DNA of 64,000 nt from an uncultured Phycisphaerales bacterium (GTDB lineage Bacteria > Planctomycetota > Phycisphaerae > Tepidisphaerales > Tepidisphaeraceae), in NCBI GenBank assembly GCA_963841305.1, contig CAWJBR010000001.1, positions 7,598-71,597 on the forward strand. The letters are read 5' to 3'. The stretch's first letter is position 1. The number at the start of each line of letters is the position of its first letter. A model generated the notes under the pieces. It was not told the DNA's origin. It worked only from the letters and a program-made list of their open reading frames with translations, and ran no database searches. The position numbers were made by a program, and so were the translations under genes. Positions 2 through 32,638 of this stretch are shown piece after piece.

Positions 2-2506
2 CTGCAGGTCCAAGGCGAAGACGGTGTCTTGCGGTCGGTTGCGCCCTTTGCGAGCCAGAAGAAGGGCGTGGTGGAGATGGCCTTCCCGGCCGTGAGCGGA
101 AAGACTTTCCGCCTGGTGTTCCACGAGGCCTTCGACCGCTGGCCGGATGCCGAGTCGGTGTCGGTGGGCGAGGTGGTGTTCCTGGACGCCGAGGGCAAGC
201 CGCTGGATTTCGGCAAGCCTCTGACCCCGGTGTACCTGCTGGAGAGCAAGGCGATGTACGAGGAGGCGGCCAACGCGACGGTGACCGACCCGCTGCCTTA
301 CAAGCCCGGCGACGAGGATGCCCGCCCGGAGGAGGTGATCGACCTGACGGCCAAGCTCGACAAGGACGGCACGCTGCGCTGGGACGTGCCGGAGGGGACG
401 TGGCAGGTCTTCCGCTTCGGCTGCACGGTCAACAGTGGGCGGGTTTCGTTCTCCTGCGCCGGGTGGACAGGATATGTGGTCAATTACCTGGACCCCGAGG
501 CCCTGCGGGCGTACTGGCGTCAGGTGGTCGATCCGCTCTTGGACGACATCCAACCGTATCTGGGCAAGGCCTTCAAAGGCTTCGAGACCGACAGTTGGGA
601 AGGCGGCGGGATCAACTGGACGGCCCGGCTGCCCGAGGAGTTCCGGCAACGCCGCGGCTACGATCCGCTGCCGTTCCTGCCGGTCTTCGCCGGGCGCATC
701 ATCCAAAGCCGCGAGGCCTCCAACCGCTTCCTGTACGACTGGCGCAAGACGGTGGGCGATTTGATGGCCGAGAACCACTACGGCGTGATGGCGAACCTGG
801 CGGCCGAGCGCGGGTTGATGATCCACTGCGAGGCCGGCGGCCCCCATGCCGGCCCCTTCGACGCCATCAAGAACTGGGGCCGCTGCACCTGGCCGATGGG
901 CGAGTTCTGGGTGCAATCCCCGCACCGGTCGGCCGAGGACGCCCGCTTCTTCATGAAAGGCCCGGCCAGCGCCGCCCACCTCTACGGCAAGCCCGTCGCC
1001 TGCGGTGAAGGCTTCACCTCCGTCGGGCCGCACTGGGACGACACGCTCTGGAGTTCGCAGAAACCCACCTTCGACCATGAGGCCTGCGCGGGACTGAATC
1101 TGACCTACTGGCACGCTTTCACCTGTTCGCCAGCCTCGATGGGCGTGCCGGGTCAGGAATATTTTGCCGGGACGCACTTCAATCCCCAGATCACCTGGGC
1201 CAATCAGGCCCACGGCTTCATCGGCTACCTGGATCGCTGCCAGTTCCTCTTGCAGCAGGGCCAGTTCGTGGCCGACGTCTGCTACTACTACGGCGATCAC
1301 GTGCCCAACGTGCCCGGCCGCAAGCAGACCGACCCGGCCAAGGTGCTGCCGACTTATGACTACGACTACCTCAACGAGGAGATGCTCTTGCAGATGCAGG
1401 TCCGGGCTGGGCGGCTGGTCGTGCCCTGCGGGATGAGCTACCGCCTGCTGGCGCTGCCGGACCTGAAGGTGCTGTCGCTGCCGGCGCTGAGGAAGGTCCG
1501 GGAACTGGCGCGGGCCGGGGCGGCGGTGGTCGGTCCCCGCCCCCAGTGCAATCCCTCGCTCTCGGGCGGAGCAGCCGCCGACCAGGAATTCGCCGCACTG
1601 TGCGAGGAGCTGTGGGGCCAAGGCCAGGTGCTCACCAAGCCGGCCAAGGACGTGTTGGCCAAGCTGGGCGTGCCGCCCGACTTTGAGGCGCGGGAGGTCC
1701 AGAGCGTGGACAAACTGGACTACCTGCACCGCCGCGACGGGCAGGCGGAGATTTACTTCCTGAGCAACCAGGCCGCCGAAGCGGTGAAGTTCACCGGCGT
1801 CTTCCGGGTTTCAGGCAAGCAGCCGGAGCTGTGGGACGCCGTCACCGGCCAGACCCGCCCGGCCGGCCAGTTCCAGCCGGTGGCGGGCCGCACCGCCGTG
1901 CCGCTGGAGTTGGCTCCGTACGGCTCGCTGTTCGTGGTCTTCCGCCACCCGGCCACGCAAGCCCCCGCGGCGACGGCCGGCAACTTCCCGGCCCTGTCCC
2001 CGGTGCAAACCCTGGAGGGGGATTGGACGGTGCGCTTCGACCCCAAGTGGGGCGGGCCGGAGAAGCCGGTGACGTTCGCGAAGCTGGAGGACTGGACGGC
2101 TCGGCCGGAAGAAGGAATCAAGTACTACTCCGGCACGGCGACGTACCGCAAGAGCTTCGATCTGCCATCCCCAATCCGCAATCCAAAATCCAAAATCTTC
2201 CTGGACCTGGGCGCGGTGAAGGAGATGGCCGAGGTGCGATTGAATGGAAAGAGCCTGGGCGTGGTCTGGTGTCCGCCGTGGCGGGTGGAGATCACGGAGG
2301 CGGTGAAGTCGGCGGGCAATGAGTTGGAGATCGACGTGGTGAACAACTGGCCCAACCGGCTGATCGGCGACGGCAAGCTGCCGCCGGAGAAGCGGATCGC
2401 CAAGACCCATTACACCGGCTGGTACAACCCGGGAAAAGACGGGAAGGAACAGACTTTGTTCCCCTCCGGTTTGCTGGGTCCGGTGCGGGTGATGAGTCAA
2501 GAATAA
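2..2506 (+). CDS. GH106-like / GH2-sugar-binding-domain glycoside hydrolase (candidate alpha-L-rhamnosidase), 5'-truncated by the window edge
   Basis: The frame is open from nt 2, with no stop before the listed TTG at 29. It is collinear with full-length paralog 39793..42747 from EVIDLT.KL..DG.L.WDVPEGTW onward. Shared C-terminal motifs are VVN.WPNRLIGD and L(F/L)PSGLLGPVRVM. The GH106 label comes from remembered family signatures, not from a search. Confidence 0.6.
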   Translation: MQVQGEDGVLRSVAPFASQKKGVVEMAFPAVSGKTFRLVFHEAFDRWPDAESVSVGEVVFLDAEGKPLDFGKPLTPVYLLESKAMYEEAANATVTDPLPYKPGDEDARPEEVIDLTAKLDKDGTLRWDVPEGTWQVFRFGCTVNSGRVSFSCAGWTGYVVNYLDPEALRAYWRQVVDPLLDDIQPYLGKAFKGFETDSWEGGGINWTARLPEEFRQRRGYDPLPFLPVFAGRIIQSREASNRFLYDWRKTVGDLMAENHYGVMANLAAERGLMIHCEAGGPHAGPFDAIKNWGRCTWPMGEFWVQSPHRSAEDARFFMKGPASAAHLYGKPVACGEGFTSVGPHWDDTLWSSQKPTFDHEACAGLNLTYWHAFTCSPASMGVPGQEYFAGTHFNPQITWANQAHGFIGYLDRCQFLLQQGQFVADVCYYYGDHVPNVPGRKQTDPAKVLPTYDYDYLNEEMLLQMQVRAGRLVVPCGMSYRLLALPDLKVLSLPALRKVRELARAGAAVVGPRPQCNPSLSGGAAADQEFAALCEELWGQGQVLTKPAKDVLAKLGVPPDFEAREVQSVDKLDYLHRRDGQAEIYFLSNQAAEAVKFTGVFRVSGKQPELWDAVTGQTRPAGQFQPVAGRTAVPLELAPYGSLFVVFRHPATQAPAATAGNFPALSPVQTLEGDWTVRFDPKWGGPEKPVTFAKLEDWTARPEEGIKYYSGTATYRKSFDLPSPIRNPKSKIFLDLGAVKEMAEVRLNGKSLGVVWCPPWRVEITEAVKSAGNELEIDVVNNWPNRLIGDGKLPPEKRIAKTHYTGWYNPGKDGKEQTLFPSGLLGPVRVMSQE
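2165..2199. repeat. Five tandem heptanucleotide units (CCATCCC CAATCCG CAATCCA AAATCCA AAATCTT) inside the CDS
   Basis: Read directly from the sequence. It encodes LPSPIRNPKSKIF. The paralog has unrelated residues (AAAGGPRLY) at the aligned position. Confidence 0.85.
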
Positions 2507-28043: not shown

Positions 28044-31000
28044 ATGGTTCGCAAGTCAAGCAATCGGAAGAGCAACAAGCGGGGTCAACTGCTGCTGGCG
28101 ACGGCGGCGGCGGGCGTGGGGATTCTGGGCCTGTTCCAGTCGGTCCAGGCGGCATCCTCAACCTATACTTGGAGCAACAGCGGGACTGGGACATGGGACA
28201 CGACCGCCACCAACTGGCCCGGCGGCACTAACCCGTGGACCAGCGCCAACGGCTCATCCAGCATCGCTGACTTCAACACCGCCAGCGCTACCGCCACCGT
28301 CAGCGCAAACGTGTACACCAACGGTATTATCCTTGACAATACCGCCACCATCTCCGGCGGGACGATCAACTTCGTCGGCTCTGCGGCCACTATCGACGTC
28401 AAGAATGCCGCCAGTGGCAGCACGATCAGCAGTGACATAACAAACAGCTTAGTGAACTTGAAGATCACCAACTCAAGCAGCACGCCCAATTCGACGATCA
28501 ACATGGGCAACTTCGTCAATCCGACGACGGCGGGGGTTACCACCACGATTGACAGCGGCGTAACGGTTAAGATGGTATCGGGGAAAACATTCTCTAACGC
28601 GAGAGGGGGGCTCGTTCTCAACGGAACTCTGAACTTGAATTCATCCGCAGCTAACTCAATCGTATTCAATAGTGGGATACTTGCTGGCGGAACGGGTTCC
28701 ATCATTAACAGCGGTACCGCGCCTAGTAACGGCGCTTACAATGTTAAATTGGGTGGTTCAAGTACTTTTGGTGGTACCATTGGAGAAAATGTCACGCTCA
28801 ATTTAAATAGCTGTTATTTTGATTTTTCAGGGGACAATCAGTCCACCAAAATGTGGCAGTTGCTTGGAACCTTTCGTATTTCCAATGCCAACGCATGGAA
28901 GACGACGTCAAAAGGCACATTTCGGGGGGCGGGAGGCACGCTTGAGTTGGCTTCCGCTGATTTGCGAATAAACAGTACTAATTTCGCGTTATCGGACGGA
29001 GGGACTTCAGTTACTAGTGTCGGTTTTGCCGCCCTTAATGGGGATCGTACAGTAACGTGGACGGGGACCAGTACGGCCTCTGACGCGCCGGCGGCTACAT
29101 TCACTTGGGGGAATGGAATTTCCGTTACTTTATTCGACAAACTGGTTTTGGGGAATGCCAACGCCACTAACAAGATCATCTGGGCCAGCCCTATTGATTT
29201 GGGAGGAACGACTAACACTACCCGCCAGATATCTGTTGTTGATAACGCTAACGGGGCGGGCGGGGAAATCAGCGGTGCCATCAGCGATAGCAATGCTACC
29301 AAGCGAACGTTGGAAAAGGTAGGTACGGGAACGCTGATCCTCAGCGGAAACAACACTTATCAGGGCCCGACTAAGATCACCACCGGCACGCTGGTGGCCG
29401 ACCATGCCAACGCATTAGGCAATGGAGGAACCATCACCTTCAGCGGCGGTACGCTTCAGTACACCGCCAACAGCGCCGGGCAGGACTGGGCCAGCCGTAT
29501 CAAGAACAGCGGCTCGGCCATCGTCCTCGACACCCAGGCCAATGCCGTCACCCTCGGCGCCTTGGATAGCACCAACACCGCCGGCCTGACCAAGCTGGGC
29601 ACCGGCCGCTTGAACTTGACCGGAACCAACGGGTATACCGGCACAACCACCGTCTCCGCCGGCACCCTCAGCGTCAACGGCTCCCTGGCCAGCGCCAACG
29701 TCTACGTCAACAACTCCGGCACCCTCGGCGGCACCGGCACCCTCAGCGGCGCCGTCAGCGTCGCCTCCGGCGGTCACCTCGCCCCCGGCAACTCCATCGG
29801 CACCCAAACCCAGGCCAGCCTCACCCTCGCCAGCGGCTCGATCCTCGACTTCCAGTTCGGCACCGCCGGCACCCTGGCCAGCCCCGGCAACAGCGACCGC
29901 ATCGCCGTCACCGGCGCCCTGACGTTGCCCACCAACGCCAGCGGCATCACCCTCAATGTCATCGACAACCTCAACGACGCCGGCAAAGGCAACATCGACA
30001 AGGGCGTCTACAGCCTCTTCACCTACGGCAGCCTCGTCGGCGGCAACAGTGACTTCAACAAAACCTTCGCCATCGGCACCACCCCCACCAACTTCGGCAC
30101 CACCGCCGAAACCGGCAACAAGAAGTACGTCTTCACCAACACCGGCTTGAACGGCGGCACGATCTTCCTGACCATCAGCGACAACTCCTCCCTCGCCGCC
30201 ACCACCTACACCCTGGCCGCCAGCGCCGACAAGAGCCGCATCCTCACCGGCCAGACCGCCACCGTCACCGCCGCCATCAACAACACCGGCACCTTGGGCA
30301 CCAACGACGCCCTGAACTACTCCGGCCTGAACCTCAGCGGCGGCGGCGGCTCCTTCAGCGGCGCCGGCCTGCCCAAGTCCAACGGCTCCCTGGGCGGCGG
30401 CTCCAACGACTCCGGCTCCCTGACCTTCACCGGCGGCTCCATCGGTCTGCAAACCATCAACGCCACCGTCGCCTCGGCTACCAACGCCACCCTGGGCGGC
30501 AACGCCACCAAGACCGGCGACACCGCCGTGCAGATTGCCGTGCTGGACAAGCGGCAGATCAGCGCCCAGGACGTGGTTCTGGGTCGGGTGATGGCCGGAC
30601 GCAACCTCAACACCCTGGCGGCCCAGAGCGTGACGCTGAACAGCCAGGCCGGCGACCACAACAGCCTGACGGACGTACAGGTGAACAACGGCCACGGCGG
30701 GTCGGTGACCTTCACCGATGCCACCGCCAGCAAGAGCCTCTCGGGCGTCACCGGCCAGAACGCCACCGTCGCCACCAGCGGCACCTTCGCCAGCCTGAAC
30801 GTGAACACTCTGGAAAGCGGCCTGGGCGACACCTACAACAACGTCGCCGTCGGCTATACCGCCTCGGTCTTCAACCCCATCGAGATGATCGCCAACAACA
30901 GCACCGGCGGGTACAACGCCTTCAACAGCGGCAGCAACACGGTGCAGGTCAGCGGCTCCAACGGCAACTACGTTTTCGCCACCGCCACCCACACCGGCGG

Positions 31001-31439
31001 AACCAACCAGGCGTACGTCAACGTGCAGACGCCAAGCGACTTTACCGCCCCCGAATATGTGCTGCTGGCCTTGAACGGGGTGTCGGGCCTGAGCCAGACC
31101 CTCGCGGTGGATGTGGCCAACGCCATCAACGCCGCGGGCCTCAGCGGCGTCCACGCCACCTACAACGGCGAAGACCTGGCGACCAACAAGATGCTGGCCG
31201 ACTGGTCCGGCTACAGCGCCTACAAAGGCACGGACATCGGCGACTTCGACGTGCTGGTGAAGTTCGACAGCTACAGCGCCGCCAACGGCGTCCTGGCCTT
31301 CGACTTCAGCCAGATCGACGGCGGAGCCGCCTCCGTCTCGGCCATCGGCGTGGTGCCGGAACCCACGAGCCTGGGCCTGATGGCCCTGCCGGCCCTGGGC
31401 CTGCTGGCCCGCCGCCGCCGGGCGATGAAGAAAGCCTGA
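28044..31439 (+). CDS. Large secreted surface protein with autotransporter-associated beta-strand (PATR) repeats and a C-terminal PEP-CTERM sorting signal
   Basis: Start at ATG 28044 with SD GGAGGA. Signal peptide MVRKSSNRKSNKRGQLLLATAAAGVGILGLFQSVQA. PATR-like units: KVGTGTLILSGNNTYQGPTKITTGTL and TKLGTGRLNLTGTNGYTGTTTVSAGTL. C-terminus VVPEPTSLGLMALPALGLLARRRR. Confidence 0.85.
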   Translation: MVRKSSNRKSNKRGQLLLATAAAGVGILGLFQSVQAASSTYTWSNSGTGTWDTTATNWPGGTNPWTSANGSSSIADFNTASATATVSANVYTNGIILDNTATISGGTINFVGSAATIDVKNAASGSTISSDITNSLVNLKITNSSSTPNSTINMGNFVNPTTAGVTTTIDSGVTVKMVSGKTFSNARGGLVLNGTLNLNSSAANSIVFNSGILAGGTGSIINSGTAPSNGAYNVKLGGSSTFGGTIGENVTLNLNSCYFDFSGDNQSTKMWQLLGTFRISNANAWKTTSKGTFRGAGGTLELASADLRINSTNFALSDGGTSVTSVGFAALNGDRTVTWTGTSTASDAPAATFTWGNGISVTLFDKLVLGNANATNKIIWASPIDLGGTTNTTRQISVVDNANGAGGEISGAISDSNATKRTLEKVGTGTLILSGNNTYQGPTKITTGTLVADHANALGNGGTITFSGGTLQYTANSAGQDWASRIKNSGSAIVLDTQANAVTLGALDSTNTAGLTKLGTGRLNLTGTNGYTGTTTVSAGTLSVNGSLASANVYVNNSGTLGGTGTLSGAVSVASGGHLAPGNSIGTQTQASLTLASGSILDFQFGTAGTLASPGNSDRIAVTGALTLPTNASGITLNVIDNLNDAGKGNIDKGVYSLFTYGSLVGGNSDFNKTFAIGTTPTNFGTTAETGNKKYVFTNTGLNGGTIFLTISDNSSLAATTYTLAASADKSRILTGQTATVTAAINNTGTLGTNDALNYSGLNLSGGGGSFSGAGLPKSNGSLGGGSNDSGSLTFTGGSIGLQTINATVASATNATLGGNATKTGDTAVQIAVLDKRQISAQDVVLGRVMAGRNLNTLAAQSVTLNSQAGDHNSLTDVQVNNGHGGSVTFTDATASKSLSGVTGQNATVATSGTFASLNVNTLESGLGDTYNNVAVGYTASVFNPIEMIANNSTGGYNAFNSGSNTVQVSGSNGNYVFATATHTGGTNQAYVNVQTPSDFTAPEYVLLALNGVSGLSQTLAVDVANAINAAGLSGVHATYNGEDLATNKMLADWSGYSAYKGTDIGDFDVLVKFDSYSAANGVLAFDFSQIDGGAASVSAIGVVPEPTSLGLMALPALGLLARRRRAMKKA

Positions 31440-31448
31440 TGAGATTGG

Positions 31449-31476
31449 CAATTTGCAATTGCCGATTTGCAATTGA
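31449..31476. repeat. Degenerate heptamer array (CAATTTG CAATTGC CGATTTG CAATTGA)
   Basis: Read directly. It overlaps a small hairpin, GGCAAT-TTGCA-ATTGCC (31446..31462), just after the PEP-CTERM stop. Confidence 0.7.
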
Positions 31477-31503
31477 AAACCAGGAACGTCTCCTGTCTTC
31501 CAA

Positions 31504-31524
31504 TTGCAAATTGCAAATTGCAAA
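31504..31524. repeat. Three perfect TTGCAAA heptamers
   Basis: Read directly. With its flanks (CTTCCAA...TC(T)CCC) it is a near-copy of 31898..31937, which carries four units. Confidence 0.9.
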
Positions 31525-31776
31525 TCTCCCCCGATTCCATAGCGGTCCGTCGGGACGCCCTCCCCCGGCGGACAAGCCTCCGACCCCCGGTCAGGATGCC
31601 CTCCCCTGGCCGGGGGTTTATCGCCGCAGGAGCGGCGATAGAGCGGTAGAGCAGGAGAACAGCAGAGCAGGAGAGGCGGGGAAACTCACCTGACCATTGG
31701 ACGCTCCACCGCGGTCTACTGCTCTCCTGATCTCCTGTTCTTCTTGGCGACGGGCGGAAAGACGGAAAGGGGAGGG

Positions 31777-31813
31777 AACATCGAACATTCAACATCGAAC
31801 ATTGAACATCGAA
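31777..31813. repeat. About five AACATYS heptamers (AACATCG AACATTC AACATCG AACATTG AACATCG AA)
   Basis: Read directly. Confidence 0.9.
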
Positions 31814-31826
31814 GGGAAAGCCACGA

Positions 31827-31889
31827 ACCACTGACCACTGACCACTGCCAACTAATGACCAATGACTAATGACCAATGACCAAGGACCA
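31827..31889. repeat. Nine-unit heptamer array (three ACCACTG, CCAACTA, ATGACCA, ATGACTA, two ATGACCA, AGGACCA)
   Basis: Read directly. It ends 5 nt before ATG 31895. The last variant unit, AGGACCA, provides the AAGGA Shine-Dalgarno. Confidence 0.9.
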
Positions 31890-31894
31890 ATCCC

Positions 31895-32638
31895 ATGCCT
31901 TCCAATTGCAAATCGCAAATTGCAAATTGCAAATCCCCAGCCGGTTTCACCCTCTCCGAGCTGCTGGTGGTGATCGCCATCATCGCGGTGCTGATGTCGC
32001 TGCTGCTGCCGGCGGTGAACAATGTCCGGCAGGCGGCTTGGAGCGTAACCTGCATGAGCAACTTGAGGCAGATTGGCCTCGCTGCCACGAGCTATAGTAC
32101 CAACTCGAAAGGGATTATTTTACCCTGTTATGTGATGAGGGTGATAAACGGTAATAATACCATATTTGATTGGTTTGGATTATTGGCGGAAACTGGTTTT
32201 TTGGGTCCAACTCAGAGTTCTAATAAATCGCCGATTGCCCGTTGTCCTGCGTTGCGCGACGATACGTTCTTCCCTTACGGGATCAACGGGGCGACAACCA
32301 ACAGCAAGGCATATGTTAGCGTCCCCGTACAAACTGGATTTCGGCAACCATATAGGATATTGCAATGCCGTCAACCGGCAGACACGGTACTTGTCTGTGA
32401 CATCCAAGGGACGACCTCGACCGGGCTGATGACAAGCGGCTATATGCCCAATATTCTCGGACGGCACGGGAATTCGGGTTCCAATCAACTCACAACCGGG
32501 TCGGTGAATGTGCTGTTTCTGGATGGGCATGTGGAAACCGTGTTCCGGCAAATGATTCCTCCTTCAGGTTATATTACGGATCCTTTGAATATGAATAAGG
32601 CAATGTATCCCTGGCCGATTTGGACCTTTAATCCGTGA
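31895..32638 (+). CDS. Prepilin-type N-terminal cleavage/methylation domain protein, DUF1559 family (type II pseudopilin-like)
   Basis: Leader [17 protein letters not shown] followed by [25 protein letters not shown]-terminal [12 protein letters not shown] (DUF1559 H-X9-DG region). Confidence 0.85.
31906..31933. repeat. Four-unit heptamer array (TTGCAAA TCGCAAA TTGCAAA TTGCAAA) within codons 4-13 of the pseudopilin leader peptide
   Basis: Read directly. Confidence 0.9.

Follow-up and report, generated by a model that had tools for sequence, protein, structure and literature searches.

Heptanucleotide repeats upstream of, and running into, a pseudopilin gene of a probable planctomycete: an inverted-array hairpin followed by a single-register tract

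The spacer between a PEP-CTERM-type surface-protein gene and a pseudopilin gene, in a 64-kb stretch of bacterial DNA (contig CAWJBR010000001.1; the whole stretch is hereafter called the window), carries tandem 7-nt units beyond chance and belongs to the heptanucleotide simple-sequence repeats (SSRs), of the long-SSR or short tandemly repeated repetitive (STRR)-like kind. The repeats fall into two halves, a stack of hairpins that opens with two inverted heptamer arrays directly behind the PEP-CTERM stop, and a continuous tract of 23 units in one register that contains the pseudopilin start codon and reaches into its leader codons. On balance, we lean towards reading them as ordinary heptanucleotide SSRs that arose by slippage at sites able to accommodate them, a spacer and a leader peptide that is disposable, with the hairpin half most likely marking the 3' end of the upstream transcript and the unstructured half forming the 5' leader of the pseudopilin gene. 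Replication slippage, followed by mutation of units and re-expansion, would most likely have produced such repeats, which may persist because they are sited where the sequence is little constrained.

The period of 7 was pronounced throughout the spacer. Within 31440-31940, the lag-7 match fraction was 0.433, against 0.257 ± 0.019 (maximum 0.318) in 1000 dinucleotide-preserving shuffles of the same segment, and four arrays reached a score of at least 10, compared with none in the 1000 shuffles. A lag-p self-match scan of the whole window returned five period-7 segments, versus none or one for each other period from 4 to 12, and Tandem Repeats Finder called period 7 at 31444-31475, 31502-31525, 31776-31813, 31854-31891 and 31904-31934, with a period-14 row over 31821-31847. 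An earlier reading made from the letters alone (the sequence-only reading) had listed arrays whose coordinates and unit sequences all match the sequence, and it had rightly pointed to a duplicated CTTCCAA(TTGCAAA)nTC(T)CCC module; the two copies form a 37-nt direct repeat (89% identity, 402 nt apart) that brackets the GC-rich spacer, and their likeness reaches 14 nt upstream of the arrays, with CTG standing for ATG. The same reading had seen a stack of different arrays in one intergenic region. The period-7 repeats themselves are real, but they resolve into one inverted-array hairpin and one 23-unit tract that continues into coding sequence: the arrays occupy the stretch from the PEP-CTERM stop to the pseudopilin start, with one running 39 nt into the open reading frame (ORF).

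In the tract (31776-31936), the units follow the order (GAACATY)5, two degenerate units, GAACCAC, (TGACCAC)2, TGCCAAC, (YAATGAC)4 and CAAGGAC, and then CAATCCC, ATGCCTT, CCAATTG, (CAAATYG)3 and CAAATCC. When all units were set out in a register table, columns 2-3 read AA in 18-20 of the 23; relative entropy was 0.42 bit per column at period 7, compared with at most 0.15 at the other periods from 4 to 11, and the lag-7 match was 0.68. The apparent spacers GAAGGGA and AAGCCAC are degenerate units of the tract. Its + strand is rich in A and C and poor in G, with one G per unit (A62 C45 T28 G24), and the RNA fold of 31770-31960 (z = +0.9) was no more stable than those of shuffles, so the tract is predicted to be unstructured. 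The pseudopilin ATG at 31895 coincides with the first base of unit 18. Upstream of it, the ATGACYA sub-array provides ATGs in all three frames (31855, 31862, 31869 and 31876), while its degenerate last unit, AGGACCA for ATGACCA, makes a Shine-Dalgarno (SD)-like AAGGA at 31882-31886, 8 nt before the ATG. The tract probably serves as a translation-friendly 5' leader of the pseudopilin mRNA, in which the degenerate unit supplies the SD-like motif, the start codon lies within the repeats, and the last four units encode the prepilin leader that is cleaved off.

ATG 31895 is the only in-frame start of the pseudopilin ORF and is also the start used by the public gene call (P0001). The cleavage motif, FTLSELL preceded by G, begins at 31946, where the leader ends as prepilin leaders do, and the leader peptide is therefore 17 residues long. 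Its codons 4-13 are the TTGCAAA/TCGCAAA array at 31906-31933, the source of both leader lysines; the last array is therefore translated, and not intergenic as had been assumed. The leaders of 120 pseudopilin homologues were basic and 3-76 residues long. Among 5.8 billion proteins, a single close homologue was found (P0002), which is 42% identical overall with an identical 14-residue leader stretch, and which is encoded on an independent contig with the same array-derived leader. Separately, in a cluster of prepilin/DUF1559 proteins from JGI metagenomes (the P0007 cluster), the called N-terminal extension has SQIRNPKSE, resembling a translated AATCCGA-type heptamer array; the members range from 261 to 402 aa, probably from differing start calls across such arrays.

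A surface- or secretion-related gene with tandem repeats at its 5' end and immediately ahead of it raises the question of a contingency locus, where unit numbers altered by slipped-strand events would turn pseudopilin expression on and off or grade it, in the manner of (TGAAAGA)n upstream of hmw in Haemophilus influenzae. A 7-nt unit is not a whole number of codons, so that its gain or loss shifts the frame, and there is a precedent for a heptanucleotide SSR that modulates adhesin expression (PMC2651432). We simulated the leader array at 0-8 copies and checked the reading into GFTLSELL. At every copy number an in-frame ATG (31869, 31876 or 31895) reached this motif, with leaders of 13-37 residues, and the degenerate AGGACCA unit removes a TGA that would otherwise close two of the three ATG frames. 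In type IV pilin-like proteins, the prepilin leader is cut off by prepilin peptidase; the mature pseudopilin would therefore be unchanged by copy number and, because the ATGACCA sub-array has ATGs in the two remaining frames as well, adding or losing TTGCAAA units would alter the length of the discarded leader only, without turning the gene off. An ON/OFF frameshift switch is thus excluded, since an in-frame ATG persists at all these copy numbers, although unit number may have graded effects on pseudopilin expression. Moreover, the sub-arrays count 3-5 units, against 13-38 at hmw (PMC2651432), the only close homologue has kept the same leader, and related loci elsewhere hold their unit number at 4-10% divergence. 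The organism, too, is an environmental polysaccharide degrader and not a host-adapted pathogen. The contingency behaviour implied by the earlier description is therefore improbable for these short arrays.

The 5' half (31441-31744) is made of consecutive hairpins. The first starts 2 nt past the PEP-CTERM stop, with a left arm of TTTGCAA-like units (31444-31476), a right arm that reads CAA(TTGCAAA)3TCTC (31501-31528), and a loop that holds a small inner hairpin, CAGGA-ACGTC-TCCTG. Its RNA fold has -38 kcal/mol (z = -6.4; 0/200 shuffles equally stable), and its inverted repeats are 83-94% complementary. The units at 31449-31476 had been described as a tandem array, CAATTKS; as a period-7 repeat they are weak (68% matches in Tandem Repeats Finder), and a better reading is that they form the inverted partner arm of the (TTGCAAA)3 at 31504-31524. 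Four further hairpins follow, two of them GC-rich, one of 8 bp and one formed by inverted arrays with an 8-nt period. The GC-rich pair is a tandem duplication (31549-31569 and 31590-31610; 21 nt, 86% identical, 41 nt apart), and the second of these hairpins (31583-31617) has a 13-bp stem with TTTAT behind it, a weak U-tract that gives it a terminator-like look. The perfect 8-bp hairpin, already recognised from the sequence, is present and can be extended to ~10 bp. In the 8-nt-period hairpin, (AGAGCRGN)x4-5 at 31640-31679 pairs with (TCTCCTGN)x3.4 at 31715-31741, the arms being 85-87% complementary around a loop of ~40 nt. The RNA fold of 31530-31775 gave z = -5.0. Taken as a whole, the stack would most likely be the 3'-end structure of the PEP-CTERM transcript, with a part in termination, in blocking exonucleases, or in both.

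Rfam returned nothing at gathering score. The best sub-threshold match was the alphaproteobacterial small RNA ar14 (31506-31621; 33.3 bits versus a gathering score of 58.8; E = 2e-4), which is most likely a generic match to consecutive hairpins; the other sub-threshold matches were microRNA hairpin models.

Repeats of this kind proved to be widespread. When one genome per GTDB species was scanned for exact (TTGCAAA)3, at least 120 loci were found, against ~0.3 expected by chance. Among the 120 matches listed, 83 were in Planctomycetota, and the remaining ones were in Acidobacteriota, Chloroflexota, Gemmatimonadota, Bacteroidota, one Lentisphaerae genome and others. The 863 kb around these listed loci held 268 period-7 arrays with many different units, compared with 1-13 arrays for other periods, and approximately 80% of the arrays were outside crude gene bodies, versus 29% of random sites. 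Gene bodies were taken from a codon-log-odds caller trained on the Pfam-validated genes of the window, which overlooks the pseudopilin and mis-calls one AraC-family regulator, and the gene-body and orientation figures are therefore approximate. Two callers based on GC content at third codon positions were discarded, having mis-called strands (for example, the antisense of the PEP-CTERM gene), as was a stop-to-stop open-frame classifier that labelled the window's own intergenic arrays as internal.

Inverted pairing was a recurrent property of these loci. An inverted partner within 250 nt was present for 68/159 TTGCAAA-type arrays and for 90/310 of all arrays, compared with 2/310 in the control, with a median gap of 50 nt. 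The first array pair of the window conforms to this pattern, which makes it a typical case of the recurrent inverted heptamer-array hairpin; the palindrome TTGCAA should favour both fold-back and slippage.

Comparison of related loci points to arrays that look stable rather than hypervariable. Two loci (L121 and L130) are 96% identical, without gaps, across the same array. In two Thermoguttaceae metagenome-assembled genomes (MAGs) with flanking genes ~90% identical, one TTGCAAA array (L030 2998-3034; L058 ~3150) keeps its unit number and shows point changes, and a second (L030 ~640; L058 1191-1230) is in one genome and absent from the other. A metagenome scan with the module pattern gave 10 unrelated loci and no orthologue of the window locus.

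In Lentisphaerae bacterium GWF2_57_35 (L117, 6390-6520, - strand), an isoleucyl-tRNA synthetase ORF contains an in-frame tract of ~14 units, (GAAGACG)n and then CCAA(TTGCAAA)4TCCCC. The tract lies ~55 residues past KMSKR and encodes 33 residues; over 37 nt, its TTGCAAA module shares 97% identity with window 31902-31938. A protein search with (LQIANCK)6 matched 9 tiny hypothetical ORFs only, and long TTGCAAA arrays are therefore not normally found in real proteins.

Several Pirellulales and Thermoguttaceae MAGs have an element with the end units ATTGCAAATTG(T/G)(A/T)AA-(TTGCAAA)3-(T/A)TGAACAA. Such conserved variant end units, in AT-rich surroundings, were seen at L006, L026, L036, L039, L050, L065, L080, L105 (two sites), L116 and L001, and two of these loci (L065 and L080) share GTCATTTTACTCCGTACKCCGTACT downstream of the (TTGCAAA)3 element. 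Arrays of the ATTGCAAATTG type have the look of a conserved and possibly promoter-like element, and not of a free-running repeat.

The duplicated CTTCCAA module could also be viewed as the terminal direct repeats of a mobile or duplicated-element relic, similar to a miniature inverted-repeat transposable element (MITE) or to paired repetitive extragenic palindromes (REPs) forming hairpins (REPINs), or left by a tandem duplication of the gene's 5' end. Such an origin would suit the 37-nt direct repeat around the GC-rich spacer with its likeness beyond the arrays, the inverted arms that make REPIN-like hairpins, and the near-identical CCAA(TTGCAAA)4TCCCC in an unrelated gene of the Lentisphaerae MAG. 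However, the likeness beyond the arrays is short, no transposase or gene resembling a REP-associated tyrosine transposase (RAYT) lies nearby, and no other copy of the spacer (31533-31775) was found in the window or among the ~130 other loci compared. The loops and flanks of inverted-array hairpins also differ between copies, even within one genome. With a spacer that is single-copy in the window and in the other loci compared, and with unconserved hairpin loops, the locus falls outside the REP, REPIN and MITE classes, and we regard a relic as highly improbable.

Assembly artefact of low-complexity sequence, which the sequence-only reading had offered as a way in which it could be refuted, is a generic concern for repeats and has nothing specific in its favour here. 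Each array is at most 38 nt, well under read length, with unique flanks on a 908-kb contig; the ORF is intact across the array, the independent contig of P0002 encodes the same array-derived leader, and hundreds of equivalent arrays occur in independent assemblies. We give this explanation practically no credence.

In viral contigs (IMG/VR), exact three-unit arrays were found at 58 loci for ACCACTG, 30 for GACCAAT, 30 for AACATCG and 12 for TTGCAAA, compared with 5, 5, 7 and 2 loci for four letter-permuted controls. The loci picked by window units were very rich in period-7 arrays and those picked by control units were not. Their commonest companion units belonged to an ACTGNNN family, which includes ACCACTG (ACTGACC rotated) and the published TAACTGA (ACTGATA rotated). 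Some viral contigs (within L173-L230, for example L176, L191 and L215) had 3-4 separate exact (ACCACTG)3 arrays within 10 kb together with many ACTGATT, ACTGATC and ACTGGCC arrays, reaching about one period-7 array per 1.8 kb. Overall, the vocabulary ACTGNNN, GACYAAT, AACATCG and TTGCAAA was seen across Planctomycetota, Lentisphaerae, Acidobacteriota, Chloroflexota, cyanobacteria, Beggiatoaceae and viral contigs, and the ACTGNNN family in particular seems to span viruses, bacteria of the Planctomycetes-Verrucomicrobia-Chlamydiae (PVC) group, Beggiatoaceae and cyanobacteria. Compared with letter-shuffled units, the preferred units showed no enrichment for stop codons or palindromes, and the enrichment of window units among non-selected arrays was not significant at up to one mismatch under a permutation null.

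A shared vocabulary would be expected if the tract were a cis-regulatory module, read in its 7-nt register by an RNA- or DNA-binding factor that tunes pseudopilin transcription or translation; ribosomal protein S1, a cold-shock-domain protein, a CsrA-like protein or a dedicated regulator would be candidates, and the common units would then reflect the factor. The viral counts, with each of the four window units 2-10 times commoner than the permuted controls, agree with this proposal, as do the richness in heptamer arrays of loci picked by window units as opposed to control units, the ACTGNNN family that unites ACCACTG, the viral units and TAACTGA (PMC4679880), and the position of a tract that abuts and includes the start codon. 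Binding of S1, cold-shock protein (Csp) or CsrA has been published as a proposal for TAACTGA upstream of starts (PMC4679880), and the regulation of recO in Nostoc was altered on deletion of its GAC(C/T)AAT repeats (bioRxiv 10.1101/2022.06.06.494920). On the other hand, the orientation of arrays to neighbouring genes was not conserved, either at a Pirellulaceae locus described below (L111) or over the listed loci, the unit composition shifts along the tract in a way that is hard to fit to one specific binder, and the permutation test among non-selected arrays was not significant. A TTGCAAA module also sits inside the coding region of isoleucyl-tRNA synthetase in the Lentisphaerae genome, where a regulatory role is unlikely. 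Furthermore, we know of no factor that binds a heptamer tract of this type. We consider a cis-regulatory module rather unlikely. A broader version, in which the arrays are the footprint of a sequence-specific system spread across phyla and partly carried by viruses, with a dedicated factor that writes or reads 7-nt registers and with tracts like that of the window serving as functional 5'-leader and 3'-hairpin modules, appears doubtful when taken as a whole.

Several observations weigh against the slippage reading that we prefer, or against the roles it assigns to the two halves. Apart from the spacer, the other 63.5 kb of the window hold just one clear period-7 array, at 2167-2197. The units ACTGNNN, GACYAAT and TTGCAAA recur across phyla and viruses 2-10 times above composition-matched controls, and pure slippage from random seeds falls short as an explanation of this recurrence. 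A consensus terminator scan made no + strand call on the spacer hairpins, which lack a good U-tract, and a promoter scan found no promoter-like site in the spacer. By the crude gene calls, arrays upstream of starts had no A>T bias on the sense strand (27 vs 31) and a weak C>G bias (33 vs 16). Finally, a Pirellulaceae MAG (mag.21; L111 4809-4912) has a stack, (TTGCAAA)6-TTGGCGG-(CTCACCA)3-CTCACTA-(ATGACCA)2-ATGACTA-ATGACAA, with the same unit families as window 31827-31933, and this stack is found on the 3' side of an alcohol-dehydrogenase-like gene that lies on the opposite strand. Its orientation and the missing A>T bias leave a general function of such arrays as translation leaders unsupported.

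Table 1. Repeat arrays, hairpins and gene boundaries of the window, with the evidence used for each
Feature	Position (nt)	Strand	Evidence
Array CCCAATC/CGCAATC/CAAAATC/CAAAATC in GH106 alpha-L-rhamnosidase gene, in frame	2167..2197	+	lag scan
TGA stop of PEP-CTERM / PATR-repeat surface-protein gene (ORF 27951/28044..31439)	31437..31439	+	ORF list, Pfam
Long hairpin, arms formed by inverted heptamer arrays	31441..31528	+	RNA fold, inverted repeats, partner test
CAATTTG/CAATTGC/CGATTTG/CAATTGA	31449-31476	+	sequence
Perfect (TTGCAAA)3	31504-31524	+	sequence
Two GC-rich hairpins, tandem duplicates, GTCGGGACGCCCTCCCCCGGC and GTCAGGATGCCCTCCCCTGGC	31545..31617	+	direct/inverted repeats, fold
Perfect 8-bp hairpin ATCGCCGC-AGGA-GCGGCGAT	31620..31639	+	sequence, fold
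Second inverted-array hairpin, 8-nt period	31640..31744	+	Tandem Repeats Finder, inverted repeats, fold
Continuous heptamer tract, 23 units, one register	31776..31936	+	register table, lag-7, fold
AACATCG/AACATTC/AACATCG/AACATTG/AACATCG	31777-31811(+)	+	sequence
(ACCACTG)3-CCAACTA-ATGACCA-ATGACTA-ATGACCA-ATGACCA-AGGACCA	31827-31889	+	sequence
(ATGACYA)4-AGGACCA sub-array	31855..31889	+	sequence, frame simulation
Pseudopilin gene: prepilin N-terminal methylation domain and DUF1559/H-X9-DG	31895..32638	+	Pfam N_methyl and DUF1559, ORF list, public gene call
Start codon and 17-residue prepilin leader, cleaved before F at 31946	31895..31945	+	Pfam, gene call, motif
TTGCAAA-TCGCAAA-TTGCAAA-TTGCAAA	31906-31933	+	sequence

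The large ORF that ends at 31439 contains Pfam PATR repeats, and its translation closes with VPEPTSLGLMALPALGLLARRRR, a PEP-CTERM-type sorting tail at the C-terminus. The 64-kb window as a whole is a dense polysaccharide-utilisation region, with two GH106 genes, one GH78, four GH2-like, and GH5, GH130, GH95 and GH38 genes, together with a GDSL esterase, two sugar transporters and two AraC-family regulators; from 21 kb onward, the + strand carries nearly all genes. The closest named relative of a window protein (GH106) is from a Phycisphaerae MAG, at 70% identity. On this basis the assignment to a PVC-type genome made from the sequence is right, and the organism is probably a planctomycete. The single array found away from the spacer, in a GH106 gene, codes for SPIRNPKSKI in a loop that is variable in an alignment of 30 homologues; one homologue that is 80% identical (P0136) has SKICNPKSKI with unchanged array length, and another (P0159) has an insertion containing EVRNQKS.

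The kind of repeat described here is already known. What is new is the lineage, the single-register tract that combines a start codon, a leader peptide and ATGs in all frames, the inverted-array hairpin architecture, and the recurrence of the same units across phyla and in viruses. In agreement with the expectation of the sequence-only reading that no PVC equivalent had been described, we found no description of such repeats for Planctomycetes or Verrucomicrobia in the Creative Commons-licensed literature and bioRxiv; the phenomenon reaches strongly into Planctomycetota and the wider PVC group. It bears on questions that have stood since 1990 and 2007, namely why 7-nt units dominate the long tandem repeats of many bacteria and why a given genome prefers certain heptamers. 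The window offers a compact natural example in which one tract is 5' leader, start codon and disposable leader peptide, and it shows how inverted heptamer arrays build long hairpins at gene ends, an architecture that recurs elsewhere. Should the arrays be neutral, the locus merely illustrates where such repeats are tolerated; if a factor does read them, they would represent a widespread and so far unrecognised regulatory layer.

Among the known systems, STRR heptamers were reportedly described in Calothrix by Mazel et al. in 1990. STRR in the strict sense, those of heterocystous cyanobacteria with units STRR1-3, do not include the window repeats, as its proteins place the host in the PVC group and its pseudopilin is of the DUF1559 type. 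The resemblance to cyanobacterial heptamers suggested by the sequence-only reading was nonetheless borne out. In Nostoc PCC 7120, eight GAC(C/T)AAT units overlap the start codon of recO, the heptamer is described at further genes, TTCAAAA repeats occur too, and deleting the GAC(C/T)AAT repeats altered recO regulation (bioRxiv 10.1101/2022.06.06.494920); the ATGACCA/ATGACTA units of the window are the same heptamer by rotation and share its variable C/T position. As in the window, STRR and the Nostoc heptamers comprise a few to ~10 copies, with several units per genome, near promoters or starts and sometimes overlapping a start codon. In contrast to them, the window belongs to a PVC host, one of its arrays codes for a prepilin leader and another folds into an inverted-array hairpin.

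Heptamers are, however, no cyanobacterial speciality as had been implied. According to Mrazek et al. 2007, as reported in PMC4679880 and PMC4692102, heptanucleotide units outnumber every other class of long SSR in most prokaryotic genomes, and long 7-nt SSRs are typical of large, GC-rich genomes of non-pathogens, with an intergenic bias near ORF ends; a slippage origin that depends on polymerase contacts was proposed. The window resembles these long SSRs in its over-represented period of 7 and its intergenic bias, while that work, as far as it is reported there, is a statistical survey without the locus anatomy given here.

MacGregor 2015 described TAACTGA repeats directly upstream of start codons in marine Beggiatoaceae, cyanobacteria and Bacteroidetes, and proposed binding by S1, Csp or CsrA (PMC4679880). 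That system is similar to the window in its short arrays (2-6 copies) immediately upstream of starts and in its spread across phyla, and TAACTGA shares an ACTGA core with the ACCACTG-A array. In BOGUAY, one unit dominates with 169 sets, and a single inverted pair was reported among ~170 sets (PMC4679880), whereas the window has five unit types in one tract, with one inverted pair and one array inside an ORF. The G-quadruplex-forming GGGAATC and GGGGAYT repeats of Xanthomonas and Nostoc, reported near ORF ends by Rehm et al. 2015 (PMC4692102), are located within ~50 bp of ORF starts (on the antisense strand) or stops and, like the window spacer, between co-oriented ORFs; the C-rich sense strand that they show upstream of ORFs was weakly seen at the (TTGCAAA)3 loci too. 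Unlike those repeats, window units with a single G (or C) each cannot form G-quadruplexes, which in this type require at least four runs of three or more G at 7-nt spacing: no unit was scored as having more than one G on the + strand or a CCC run. At hmw1A and hmw2A of Haemophilus influenzae, finally, 13-38 (TGAAAGA)n units lie upstream and their copy-number polymorphism grades expression (Dawid 1999; PMC2651432). The window shares with hmw the placement of 7-nt repeats upstream of a surface-protein gene, and differs from it in having 3-5 units per sub-array and a frame-proof arrangement.

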